A stretch of DNA of 64,000 nt from Planctomycetota bacterium (GTDB lineage: Bacteria; Planctomycetota; Planctomycetia; Pirellulales; Lacipirellulaceae): the NCBI GenBank assembly GCA_039190745.1, contig JBCCXZ010000003.1:59760-123759 (forward strand). The letters are read 5' to 3'. Of the stretch, positions 18,001 through 21,000 are shown one piece after another. Position numbers: made by a program. Position 1 is the first letter of the stretch. Every line of letters begins with the position of its first letter.

Positions 18001-21000
18001 TCAGTCACAACCCGTGCGATTGCAGATGTGCCGACGCGCATCTTGGTCCCCGAAGACTCGTCGACCCGGATCACCACTATCTCCGCGTCCCGTTGGACGC
18101 TCGTGACGACCCCATGGATGCCTCCGATCGTTACGACCCGGTCTTTCTCTTTCAGGCCGTCGATCATCGATTTAAAGGTCTGCTCTTTGTTCTTCTGCGG
18201 CCTGAGGATCATGAAGTAGAACAGCACGCCGACAATAATCAGGCCGGGTAGCATGCTCGAAAGAGGCGACTGGGGCTGCTCGCCGGCTTCGGCCAGAATG
18301 CTCGCTGCGGCCAGGGTGGACGCGTTCACTTCATCACCGTTTGCGGGGCTAACGTCGTCGGAATCGCGTATCTTAAGTCCCTATGTGGTAAGCAGCAAGG
18401 GCGGCAGGGCTCTGTGCCGGCTAAGCCGGTTCCCGCCGGCTCCAACCGGCGAGCTTCTCCGCACGGAACTCCCCAAAAGCGTCCTGTTCGATCGCCTGAC
18501 GCGCCGATCTCATCAGCCGCTGGTAGTAAAAGAGGTTGTGGATCGAGGCCAGGATCGGGCCGAGCATCTCCTTGGCCTGGAAAAGGTGCCGGAGGTAGCC
18601 GAGGCTGTGGCTGCAAGCCGGGCAGGGGCAATCGGGGTCGAGCGGTCGGGGGTCTTGTGTCAATCGGGCATTACGCAGCCGCAGCGGCGGACCATCGGTG
18701 TAGACCAACGCATTGCGGCCGTTGCGGGTGGGGAGAACGCAGTCGAACATGTCGACCCCTCGGGCAATCCCCTCGACCAAATCACCGGGCTTGCCCACAC
18801 CCATCAGGTAGCGCGGGCGGTCTGCTGGGAGCTCGGGCACGGTGAAATCCAGCGTGCGGTACATCTCCGCGGGCTCTTCGCCTACGCTCAGCCCGCCCAC
18901 GGCGTAGCCTGGGAAATCCAGTTTCACGAGCTCCCGTGCAGATTCTTTGCGGAGCGTTTCGTCGAGCCCGCCCTGGACGATCGCCATGAGCATCTGATCG
19001 GGGCGGCCAGCGGCCTTCTGGCACCGCTCGGCCCAGCGCAGGCTCCGCCGGCTGGCGTCCGCGATCGTCGATCGGTCGGCGGGCAGGGCTGCGACGTGGT
19101 CGAATACCATCGCGATGTCGCTGCCCAGATTTTCCTGGATCTCAATCGATCGTTCGGGCGTGATCCGCAGCAGGTCTCCGTCGATGTGCGAGCGGAACGA
19201 GACTCCCTGCTCGTCGATCGCGGCACTATCGGCGAGGCTAAAGACTTGGAATCCCCCGCTGTCGGTCAGGATTGGCCCCGGCCAGCCCATGAACTCGTGG
19301 AGGCCGCCTAGTCCCGCCACCACCTCGTCACCCGGCCGCAGGGCGAGGTGGTAGGTGTTGCCGAGCACCATCTCGGCGCCGGTCTCGCGGAGTCGACCAG
19401 CGTCGATCCCCTTCACGGTCCCGACGGTGCCCACCGGCATGAACGCCGGGGTTTGCACGTCGCCATGCGGCGTGGAGAGCACGCCGCGCCGCGCGTCCGA
19501 GTGGGCGTCGACGTGGTGGAGCGTGTAGCGGAACAAGGGCGGTCCCGGCGTCGGGTGCTCAGTCGCCGCGGAGCTTCAGGTTGTGTACCGTGAGCTTCTC
19601 GCGGACTTCGTTGAGGCTGGTGACGCCGAAGTTCTTGCACTCCAACAGGTCGTCGCCGGTGCGGCGGACCAGGTCGCCGACGGTAGTCAGGCCCAAACGG
19701 ACCATGCACTTGCGGGCCCGCACCGAAAGGTTCAGGTCGGAAATCGGCCGGTCGAGCAGAGCCCGCTCGTCGTCGCTCAAAGATGAGGAGTCGTAGTTCG
19801 TCTCCTCTTCCTTCCAAGCGGTGGCAAACTGGCCGAGTTCGAGGCCCTTGGACGATAGCATCTCGCGGATCTCCACCAGCGAGGTCTCGCCGAAGTTCTT
19901 ACTTGCCAGCAGCTCTTGCTCGCTGGTCTCGGTGAGGTCGCCGAGGGTCATGATGCCCATCTTCTGCAGGCAATTGCGGCTTCGGACCGAGAGCTCGAAG
20001 TCGGTTACAGGCACGCTCAGGACCTGAGCCAGGCGGTCGCGGCGGCGGCGTTCCTCCTCGTCGTAGTACATGTCGCGAGAAGCGTCGGCGTCTTTGAAAA
20101 ACAGCCGTGCGCGCTCGTGCGCCGGGTAGGCGTCCAGCACGCGGGAGTAGCACTGCTTGGCACGCTCAAACTGCTCCATGTCCTCGTAGAGCAGCCCGAG
20201 GTTGAGGAGCGTACCGACGTGGGACGGGAACTGCGTGACCGCCCGCTCGTAAAGCTCCTGGGCGTAGTGGTCGTTGCCGTGCCGGTCGTTCTCCAGCGCC
20301 AGGCCGAACAAGGCCCCGGCGTGGTTGCCGTCGGCCTCGACGGCCCGTTCAAGCAGGGCAACGACCTCGCTAGGATTGCCGCCGAGCGCGGAGACGGTTG
20401 CCGAGCGCTGGTAGAGGTACTCTGCAGTCTGCTCGACGGCGCCGGAGAGGTCGTCGAGGATCGCGAGCGAGCCCGCCGCGTCTCCCGCGTAGCGCTTGGC
20501 TTCGGCCTTGGCGAGCGAGACATCGTCTTTTGGGTACCCGGCGCGTTCTGCGGACTCGTAAGCGGTCAGTGCGGTTTCGTACTGGTCGAGCGACAGCTGA
20601 GCCTTGCCCAAGAAGAACTGCGTCAGCGCGCCGCCGTCCGCGTTTTCCAGCGTCGGAACCGCGTCGGAGTACCTGCCCAGCAGGAAGTAGCAGACGCCCA
20701 GCCGCACGGAAGCGGCCGGCGTGCGTTCGCCCTGCTGCTCAATTTCTTGCACCGACTCGCGCAGCACGCGGAAGTTGTCGTAGTCCTTCGAGACGGCGGC
20801 GACGATCTGGTCGATCTCGGCGGGGCCGAACGTGCTGTTGGACACGACGGCCTGGCGGATGTCGAACTCGGCAACGGCTTCTGGCATCGACAAAGCAACG
20901 ACTCCTGAGAATGGCGAGGAAGGCCTGACGCGACGCGGCGGGCGGTGGCCGGGGCGACGCGGGCCGGGTGAGCGGCTGGGGATTCCACTAAGAGCCAGCG

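Follow-up and report, generated by a model that had tools for sequence, protein, structure and literature searches.

Among the Planctomycetota, a gene on the minus strand of the window (the whole 64,000-nucleotide stretch of contig JBCCXZ010000003.1 analysed here) encodes a 442-residue protein in which a TPR scaffold is followed by two tandem copies of the RNA polymerase alpha-subunit C-terminal domain (alpha-CTD). This TPR-alpha-CTD gene is core, single-copy and, among the phyla searched, restricted to Planctomycetota, and it is probably essential in P. limnophila. On sequence and a predicted model, its product could tentatively be a factor peculiar to this lineage that provides alpha-CTD modules in trans, acting either at promoters or on RNA polymerase itself, although that reading is put forward as possible and not as probable. 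The first-pass annotation, which had interpreted the protein as a core, phylum-specific transcription factor bridging to or acting as a decoy for RNA polymerase, is partly supported. What makes the gene of interest is that a near-universal and probably essential protein reuses the RNA polymerase domain dedicated to contacts with activators and upstream DNA, under public names ("RNA polymerase subunit alpha" or "TPR protein") that obscure it.

A TPR scaffold with two alpha-CTDs

The gene occupies 19559..20887 (minus strand), starts with an ATG at 20887 and, when its frame is translated, runs for 442 codons to the stop without interruption. An alternative, longer frame from a TTG reaches 21142 and overlaps a tRNA-Thr gene (anticodon CGT, ARAGORN; 20992..21066, minus strand) that lies 105 nt upstream, and the 442-residue gene model is preferred for this reason. 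The open frame, Pfam and NCBIfam matches and an AF2 model (mean pLDDT 88.7) agree on the anatomy. PF03118 (RNA_pol_A_CTD) matches twice with 141 bits in total against a cut-off of 23.8, its best stretch being residues 372-433, and in the whole-genome scan the copies score 74.6 bits (CTD1) and 77.8 bits (CTD2). Several TPR families match within residues 55-262, TPR_1 (59.4 bits) and TPR_2 (53.3 bits) being above cut-off, so the domain composition first proposed for the 442 residues holds.

From the N-terminus, all on the minus strand, the parts are a TPR superhelix (residues ~10-257; 20117..20860), drawn from the Pfam matches and from helix pairs predicted at 10-253; a long conserved helix (258-292; 20012..20116) with an M-Y-Y-D-E-E motif, which links the TPR region to CTD1 and is modelled as a single helix over 258-290; CTD1 (293-352; 19832..20011), also delimited by alignment to 1COO; an acidic linker (353-380; 19748..19831) in which pLDDT falls below 50 at 358-364; and the mildly basic CTD2 (381-440; 19568..19747). 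Both alpha-CTD regions are modelled as short helices with pLDDT ~90. The top PDB matches of the whole model in Foldseek were generic TPR superhelices, and this search returned no TPR-plus-HhH analogue; a query of the Atlas with residues 258-442, in which TPR clusters were left aside, gave no usable match. Pfam found no HTH family in the protein. A TPR regulator of the RRNPP type (PlcR/Rap/NprR) could therefore be ruled out, as the N-terminal HTH is absent and the DNA-binding-type modules are the C-terminal alpha-CTDs.

A core gene, probably essential

A match at E<=1e-10 was found in 100 of 101 Planctomycetota genomes, and the fused TPR-alpha-CTD match in 94 of the 100 other than this one, which confirms the phylum-wide presence claimed before. 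In four other phyla, represented by 354 genomes (a sample without Pseudomonadota proper), no tandem alpha-CTD was detected, and all ten look-alike Atlas clusters (10/10) were Planctomycetota, in keeping with the proposed phylum specificity. Of 8000 database proteins scored, 7807 matched at E<=1e-5; leaving the query itself aside, the top 119 are 441-452 residues long and 74-86% identical to it, in line with the more than 7800 database proteins reported earlier. Exactly three PF03118 matches, one in rpoA and two in the TPR-alpha-CTD gene, occur in 37 of 41 Planctomycetota genomes. The third, free-standing alpha-CTD noted in the first pass does exist in this genome, as a 106-residue frame on contig C83 (63.5 bits, PF03118), but is not a general feature of the phylum.

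A published TraDIS screen of P. limnophila bears on the importance of the gene. Plim_0602, labelled both COG0202 and COG0457 (TPR) and on that basis the probable ortholog, had an insertion index of 0.00074, in the essential range, compared with 0.0040 for rpoA, 0.14 for the neighbouring Plim_0601 and cut-offs of 0.013 and 0.022, and Fig. S3 of the study lists it as essential (PMC10632474). The phyletic table of that study places Plim_0602 under universal COGs (PMC10632474). The index of the adjoining Plim_0603 is low as well (0.0012), which leaves room for a polar effect, and the authors caution that condensed DNA, noted in Planctomycetia, can mimic essentiality (PMC10632474). The TPR-alpha-CTD gene is thus probably essential in P. 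limnophila, where genetic tools make it directly testable.

Relationship to RpoA and other alpha-CTD proteins

An identity with RpoA itself (TIGR02027, COG0202) can be ruled out. The RpoA N-terminal domains (RNA_pol_L / RNA_pol_A_bac) are absent from the protein in Pfam at E<=0.01, and the rpoA equivalog models stay below cut-off (TIGR02027, 125.6 vs 227.8 bits; NF003513, 131.6 vs 302 bits) with matches that span only their C-terminal ends. As previously indicated, a true rpoA lies elsewhere, as a 334-residue frame with its own CTD on contig C33. The likeness to the alpha-CTD of RpoA (PF03118; PDB 1COO, 1LB2, 3K4G) lies in the Arg aligned with R265, in the retained N-x-G-x-x-S loop and in two tethered heads, as the alpha dimer provides. 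In contrast to RpoA, the protein has no alpha N-terminal assembly domain, carries both CTDs in one chain behind the TPR region, and is encoded outside the ribosomal-protein/rpoA operon.

A fifth alpha-CTD match in the genome belongs to a 1432-residue NERD-kinase protein (NCBIfam NF033442, BREX PglW), and its reading as a beta-prime C-terminal domain was discarded on this basis. Kinases of this PglW-type NERD/Ser-Thr class likewise reuse the module outside RNA polymerase, but with one alpha-CTD in a large defence-type kinase that lacks TPR and is not phylum-wide. Since proteins with no relation to RNA polymerase carry such modules, an alpha-CTD by itself is no proof of a role in transcription. 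Some metagenomic proteins carry 5-10 alpha-CTD copies. Helix-hairpin-helix models of Pfam (HHH_5) give the alpha-CTD weak scores, as they do the middle domain of RuvA.

Contact residues in the two CTDs

Conservation was counted over 28 genomes for CTD1 and CTD2, with 18 planctomycete RpoA CTDs for comparison. Conservation within the protein peaks at CTD1, with a mean pairwise identity of 0.73, higher than the 0.59 of the phylum's genuine RpoA CTD. CTD2 follows at 0.53 and the long helix 258-292 at 0.48 (R259, A260, D266, M273, D276 and E277 being invariant or nearly so), then the last TPR repeats (residues 190-257, 0.45), the N-terminal part of the TPR region (0.22) and the linker (0.14). In sequence alignments, residues 278-359 match residues 10-91 of 1COO, the E. 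coli alpha-CTD, without a gap (E 4e-14), and alpha chains of mycobacteria and B. subtilis can be aligned with CTD2.

The DNA contacts of E. coli alpha include R265, N268, C269, G296, K298 and S299, as well as N294, and this numbering is applied to CTD1 and CTD2. The V-R-x-x-N/K-C and N-F-G-x-x-S/T motifs earlier described in both copies are present and conserved. The R265 equivalent is invariant in each CTD (28/28), and N294, G296 and S299 are each kept in 28 genomes in CTD1 and 27 in CTD2. CTD1 further retains C269 (28/28) and N268 (26/28), and so five of the six contacts named first, the exception being K298, which is Thr in all 28. CTD2 keeps C269 in 18 of 28, has mostly Lys or Arg at position 268 (24/28), and likewise replaces K298 by Thr. 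Basic residues also stand at position 267 (24/28 in CTD1, 26/28 in CTD2).

The loss of Lys 298 is not a peculiarity of this protein, since Thr stands there in 18/18 planctomycete RpoA CTDs as well as in 28/28 CTD1 and 24/28 CTD2 sequences; verrucomicrobial RpoA CTDs (n=6) retain G-K-K-S. The two modules thus follow the phylum's own alpha-CTD. CTD1 additionally has Glu at position 297 in 26 of 28, and with the missing Lys DNA affinity may be low; the phylum's RpoA, however, shares the Thr. An acidic pair, D259/E261, is held in CTD1 (27 and 28 of 28), stricter than in the phylum's RpoA, where these positions are a mixture of D/E/N/G.

A possible role with RNA polymerase

In the proposed mechanism, an acidic TPR superhelix followed by one long conserved helix would mount CTD1 on the final repeats, and CTD2 would hang from the unconserved linker of ~28 residues, as suggested by sequence and model. 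Such a layout would imitate the two tethered heads of the alpha dimer, with a TPR protein-binding platform in place of the alpha N-terminal dimer. With its invariant Arg, each CTD would contact the minor groove of DNA, and the acidic pair of CTD1 may additionally meet sigma region 4 or regulators. A partner protein would sit in the TPR groove, RNA polymerase or one of its bound factors being the likeliest candidate. Taken together, these contacts would make the protein a general, lineage-specific co-factor that gives alpha-CTD function in trans.

A bolder version, which we regard as unlikely, is that the protein is an extra essential, lineage-specific RNA polymerase factor, in effect an added subunit, docked by its TPR region and offering two further alpha-CTD heads in trans. 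Promoters of the phylum could then use up to four alpha-CTDs, and the phylum-wide change of K298 to Thr would mark a different recognition of upstream DNA.

Lineage-specific essential general RNA polymerase-binding factors are known in other phyla. CarD and RbpA in Actinobacteria and GrgA in Chlamydia are such factors, and they have changed the understanding of transcription in these lineages. To our knowledge, no lineage-specific essential RNA polymerase partner has been described so far for Planctomycetota, and our literature search found no paper on the function of the TPR-alpha-CTD protein. Like CarD, RbpA and GrgA, the latter belongs to one lineage, is near-universal there and is probably essential; like it, these factors combine DNA-contacting and protein-contacting parts, and the TPR-alpha-CTD protein may work similarly. 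Unlike CarD and RbpA, to which it has no sequence relationship, it matches neither family in Pfam. Another parallel is found in NusA of gamma-proteobacteria, whose AR1/AR2 are tandem helix-hairpin-helix domains, AR2 binding the alpha-CTD. Both proteins end in a tandem of small helix-hairpin-helix-type domains, which NusA uses for protein contacts, but the families differ, since here the alpha-CTDs themselves are the modules and the N-terminal part is TPR and not S1/KH.

Genomic context and alternative functions

The next gene in the window, tgt (tRNA-guanine transglycosylase; 18421..19536, minus strand; Pfam TGT 505 bits, TIGR00430 479.5 bits), starts 22 nt past the stop codon, so the two genes are probably co-transcribed. 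It is followed by yajC (17973..18329, minus strand; Pfam YajC 80.1 bits) and by a fused secDF (14509..17919, minus strand; Pfam SecD_SecF_C 244.8 bits, NCBIfam SecDF models), the final gene of a conserved cluster. Of 23 relatives in the same order, 18 have tgt as the immediate downstream gene and 20 have the tRNA-Thr gene upstream. A promoter/terminator scan of 17800-21400 gave no promoter-like site and three terminator-like sites, a number not above the shuffled expectation, none of them meaningfully placed on the gene's strand. Among the sequencing runs listed in a search with this DNA, no RNA run appeared, and the one strong DNA match may be the source sample.

The first-pass annotation had listed no neighbourhood evidence, a statement that no longer stands. 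In 28 of 39 genomes of other orders the gene immediately downstream is ruvA, which encodes RuvA_N and RuvA_C domains; in 26 genomes the two share a strand, and the spacing is 7-600 nt. The genes ruvB, tgt, yajC and secDF often come next, with the TPR-alpha-CTD gene at the front of the cluster. Neither rpoA nor another transcription gene adjoins it in any locus examined.

This context raises an alternative, which we consider distinctly improbable, that the protein binds DNA structures and assists RuvAB in recombination or in maintaining replication forks or the chromosome, its CTDs holding DNA arms while the TPR region recruits or regulates the branch-migration machinery. Besides the adjacency to ruvA, it would be favoured by the persistence of the gene-ruvA pair (kept in 13 of 20 loci, against 6 of 20 for ruvA-ruvB) and by the weak HHH_5 scores that alpha-CTD and RuvA have in common, both proteins having helix-hairpin-helix modules of a kind that binds the DNA backbone. 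RuvA and RuvC of P. limnophila also have essential-range indices (0.0032 and 0.0059; PMC10632474).

The order ruvAB-queA-tgt-yajC-secDF is, however, a classic conserved gene order among unrelated functions, and the cluster here also mixes unrelated housekeeping functions. Where it was rearranged, the gene kept its place beside tgt instead of moving with ruvA, which is adjacent in 0 of 23 relatives of the window's order and in this genome lies behind ruvC on a different contig. RuvC being present, there is no resolvase gap and the gene is not a substitute for a missing RuvC; nor is it RuvA, since the RuvA_N OB-fold and RuvA_C domains are absent from the protein in Pfam. A role with RuvAB would also give no reason for the alpha-specific residues that are kept or for the Thr 298 shared with RpoA. 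A co-fold with RuvA, for one pair from a single genome with 18-row alignments, scored 0.00 and counts neither for nor against such a role. If it nevertheless applied, the protein would add a new accessory to a machine that is otherwise well known, and would do so in a phylum in which RuvABC seem to be essential.

There is a small chance that the CTDs act without DNA, as a decoy or hub binding alpha-CTD-docking proteins (activators, sigma region 4 or NusA-like factors) and titrating or pre-assembling them on the TPR region. The strict acidic pair of CTD1, the lost Lys 298 together with Glu 297 and the overall acidity of the protein would all be consistent with this, but essential and universally single-copy status is unlikely for a pure decoy, and the invariant Arg of both CTDs and the extra basic residues at 267 and at CTD2 268 argue for nucleic-acid contact.

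Least probable by our estimate is a nucleoid-associated architectural protein that would bridge or condense the nucleoid by TPR self-association and two non-specific DNA-binding heads: its phylum-wide and probably essential status, the two DNA-binding-type modules on a predicted flexible tether, the general DNA tethering suggested by the multi-copy metagenomic proteins and the condensed DNA of Planctomycetia (PMC10632474) would fit, but the charges are unlike those of typical nucleoid proteins. The TPR region has a net charge of -20 in this protein and a family mean of -14, and mean charges are ~0 for CTD1, just +1.7 for CTD2 and -2.4 for the linker; the acidity of the TPR region and of the whole protein suits a factor that depends on a partner better than it suits a nucleoid protein acting freely.

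Gene model and domain architecture

The TPR-alpha-CTD gene lies at 19559-20887 on the minus strand of the window, an open frame of 442 residues from an ATG at 20887, with AGGAG 14 nt 5' of it. An alternative TTG start extends the frame to 21142; because this longer frame crosses the tRNA-Thr (CGT) gene that the same strand carries at 20992-21066, the 442-residue model is the right one. Pfam finds two copies of RNA_pol_A_CTD (PF03118), scoring 141 bits where the cut-off is 23.8, together with several TPR families over residues 55-262. The first-pass annotation, which left the strand unstated, described the gene correctly. 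The NCBIfam rpoA equivalog models align to the protein through their C-terminal ends alone and far under their cut-offs (TIGR02027, 125.6 bits, cut-off 227.8). Public records name the protein by its domains only, and the family is a new architecture assembled from known domains.

An AlphaFold2 model built from an alignment of 30 family sequences (mean pLDDT 88.7, pTM 0.60) predicts a TPR superhelix of paired helices (residues 10-253), a single long helix (258-290), CTD1 (293-352), a linker of low confidence (pLDDT below 50 at 358-364) and CTD2 (381-440). A Foldseek search of this model against the PDB returned nothing beyond generic TPR superhelices.

Regional conservation was assessed on 28 genomes with one sequence each, after P0022 and P0093, both close relatives from the database, had been removed from the alignment. 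Mean pairwise identity is 0.22 in the N-terminal TPRs, 0.45 in the last TPRs (190-257), 0.48 in the long helix, 0.73 in CTD1, 0.14 in the linker and 0.53 in CTD2. The genuine RpoA CTD gives 0.59 across 18 Planctomycetota genomes, a set partly different from the 28 (21 stretches were fetched and three left out for poor register). CTD1 is thus under very strong constraint. The TPR region is acidic, with a mean net charge of -14 across the family and -20 in the window's protein; CTD1 is about neutral and CTD2 mildly basic (mean +1.7). Since some lineages have shorter members whose N-terminal part holds fewer repeats (frames of 288-347 aa, lengths of 216-346 aa), the conserved core consists of the last TPRs, the helix and both CTDs.

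Distribution within and outside the Planctomycetota

The gene is present throughout the phylum in single copy. A clustered-protein search (5.8 billion) gave at least 7807 matches at E ≤ 1e-5, with 8000 candidates scored; leaving out the query itself, the top 119 have lengths of 441-452 aa and identities of 74-86%, and organism names, where given, are all planctomycetes. The ten nearest Atlas clusters are likewise all from Planctomycetota, and a profile of the helix-CTD1-linker-CTD2 part (A2) found 560 cluster representatives at E ≤ 1e-30 among 1.84 billion. The phylum-wide presence claimed earlier was borne out by matches at E ≤ 1e-10 in 100 of 101 genomes sampled evenly across the phylum; one long match running from the TPRs to the alpha-CTDs occurs in 94 of the 100 other genomes, as counted from the matches listed, and a single alignment spans both CTDs in 88 of those 94. 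In the remaining genomes the gene is divided between two contig ends (G078), matched in part (G059) or matched at the CTD level without a TPR-joined match (G084), and no fused match was found in G006 (90% complete), G090 (73%) or G010 (66%).

The restriction to the phylum, which the first-pass annotation had left unchecked, was examined by searching genomes of other phyla, picked through a 16S probe scan, with the A2 profile. Matches occur in 150 of 151 genomes from the phylum of a Luteolibacter (Verrucomicrobiota by title; 147 genomes with one match, three with two, one with none), in all 41 from a phylum that is Hydrogenedentota by title (exactly one each), in 77 of 101 from a phylum of 0.5-2.1 Mb genomes and in 56 of 61 from the phylum of a Longilinea (Chloroflexota by title; the unpublished G437 among them). 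None of the matches listed for these four samples, which leave three of the Luteolibacter-phylum matches outside, covers both CTD positions, and five more single genomes from outside the phylum likewise gave no match over both. The matches sit in frames of rpoA size, the few longer ones running through stop codons. The tandem architecture was not found in the other-phylum genomes searched, a sample that left out Pseudomonadota proper, Bacillota, Actinomycetota and most of the small phyla.

Conservation of the alpha-CTD contact residues

CTD1 aligns without gaps to the E. coli alpha-CTD (1COO; E 4e-14). The arginine of V-R-S-A-N-C is presumably E. coli R265, so that residue numbers are the E. 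coli number +37 in CTD1 and +125 in CTD2. The E. coli alpha residues compared here have roles in contacting DNA and regulators. R265 is arginine in all 28 copies of CTD1, all 28 of CTD2 and all 18 planctomycete RpoA sequences; N294 and G296 are kept in 28, 27 and 18, respectively, and S299 in 28 and 27, with serine in 15 and threonine in three of the RpoA sequences. As judged by alignment, these DNA-contact positions of alpha are retained in the TPR-alpha-CTD protein. Other positions vary more. Position 297 (K in E. coli) is E in 26 of 28 CTD1 copies, mostly Q or V in CTD2 and K in 14 of 18 RpoA sequences; A267 is replaced by R in 24 CTD1 copies, 26 CTD2 copies and three RpoA sequences; N268 is N in 26 CTD1 copies and 15 RpoA sequences and K or R in 24 CTD2 copies. 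CTD1 has a fixed acidic pair at D259/E261 (D in 27 of 28, E in 28 of 28), and both positions are mixed in CTD2 and in RpoA.

K298, which we take to be a UP-element contact, is threonine in all 28 CTD1 copies, 24 of 28 CTD2 copies and all 18 planctomycete RpoA sequences, and six verrucomicrobial RpoA CTDs retain G-K-K-S at 296-299 (the RpoA stretches compared being L186-L205, L001 and L176-L181). Thr298 is therefore a trait of the phylum, and the comparison points to CTD1 and CTD2 deriving from the phylum's own rpoA, or sharing constraints with it.

Gene neighbourhood

The first-pass annotation had no neighbourhood evidence to offer, a gap now closed. Outside the window's order, a non-random set of 39 genomes was compared (the 29 best-scoring loci minus one same-genus duplicate, plus 11 chosen for long contigs), and a RuvA profile places ruvA directly downstream of the gene in 28 of them, with gaps of 7-600 nt; 26 have the two genes on one strand, and in two genomes of one genus ruvA is convergent. 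In a wider view of 20 loci, 6 kb either side, ruvA comes next in 13 and ruvB then in six; the complete chain of ruvA, ruvB, (queH), a SpoIID-like gene, tgt, yajC and (secDF) occurs in five, and one locus runs from the gene to SpoIID-like, tgt, yajC and secDF without ruvAB. The upstream neighbours vary, which makes the TPR-alpha-CTD gene the head of the cluster, and its place in front of these housekeeping genes is conserved.

The window reads, on the minus strand, fhcC, fhcB, tRNA-Thr, the TPR-alpha-CTD gene, tgt, yajC and secDF, with tgt beginning 22 nt past the stop codon and the tRNA 105 nt upstream of the gene. Among 23 relatives of the window's order (with one locus too short to judge for the tRNA and one for tgt), the tRNA-Thr (CGT) is directly upstream in 20 and tgt directly downstream in 18, and ruvA adjoins the gene in none. 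Elsewhere in the phylum, none of 20 loci has the tRNA directly upstream, so that this arrangement holds for the window's order only. In the window's genome, ruvA comes directly after ruvC on another contig (C10:11874-12603, L183/L184), whereas it follows the TPR-alpha-CTD gene in most of the phylum's other orders. The window thus carries a contracted version of an old cluster: when ruvA departed, the TPR-alpha-CTD gene remained with tgt. A role linked to RuvAB, which the synteny with ruvA would favour, is accordingly weakened and rather unlikely, since the gene stayed behind when the cluster broke up and the cluster mixes unrelated functions.

Just upstream of the tRNA, 21166-23291 (-) carries two genes that match formylmethanofuran dehydrogenase subunits B (TIGR03129, 241.5 bits, under cut-off) and C (TIGR03122, 212.3 bits, over cut-off), with mobA and hisB beyond. 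A 352-aa ATG frame antisense to tgt (18253-19311, +) has no family match and, as can arise in DNA rich in G+C, is most likely spurious.

Probable essentiality and possible function

Literature searches found no paper on the function of the protein or on the locus tag Plim_0602, and only unrelated work on PF03118 (RNA_pol_A_CTD). A TraDIS study of Planctopirus limnophila assigns Plim_0602 to two COGs, COG0202 (RNA polymerase alpha) and COG0457 (TPR), in the data table of its Fig. S3, a figure that its text describes as showing essential genes (PMC10632474). Going by this double label alone, Plim_0602 is probably the counterpart of our gene. Its insertion index is 0.00074, set beside 0.0012 for Plim_0603, 0.0032 for ruvA (Plim_2446), 0.0040 for rpoA (Plim_0499), 0.0059 for ruvC (Plim_2444) and 0.14 for Plim_0601, with cut-offs of 0.013 and 0.022; RuvA, RuvB and RuvC are all in the same figure table (PMC10632474). 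The paper ranks Plim_0602 among universally conserved genes because its COG labels are universal, and its authors caution that condensed DNA can imitate essentiality (PMC10632474). A polar effect on Plim_0603 may be involved. On the figure table and text of this study, the TPR-alpha-CTD gene is probably essential. Values in the essential range for ruvA and ruvC are unusual compared with E. coli.

We tentatively favour a lineage-specific general co-factor of transcription, a reading we hold as a possibility. The TPR region would hold a protein, its platform docking on RNA polymerase or on a factor attached to it, and would present a fixed and a tethered alpha-CTD head to bind DNA or alpha-CTD partners. 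A pure decoy is improbable, as it fits poorly with essentiality, and a nucleoid protein still more so given the acidic charge. What probability remains goes to something else.

Other alpha-CTD proteins

The window's genome holds five PF03118 matches in a Pfam scan: one in the true rpoA (contig C33, 334-aa frame), two in the TPR-alpha-CTD gene, one in a free-standing alpha-CTD (contig C83, L004:1456-1773, 106-aa frame) and one in a 1432-aa protein on the minus strand of contig C3 upstream of the window (L185:524-4822). The free-standing copy reported earlier is real (63.5 bits), but it is not general: 37 of 41 phylum genomes have exactly three matches, rpoA plus the two of the TPR-alpha-CTD gene, and it is therefore not a phylum trait. 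The exceptions are the window's genome, G022 with six, and G006 and G010 with one each. The 1432-aa protein joins NERD, a Ser/Thr kinase and one alpha-CTD, and resembles the BREX kinase PglW. Four metagenome proteins without taxonomy (P0121, P0162, P0216 and P0251; 483-1788 aa) carry 5-10 consecutive alpha-CTD copies by Pfam and no TPR, an architecture whose sole name is a domain label.
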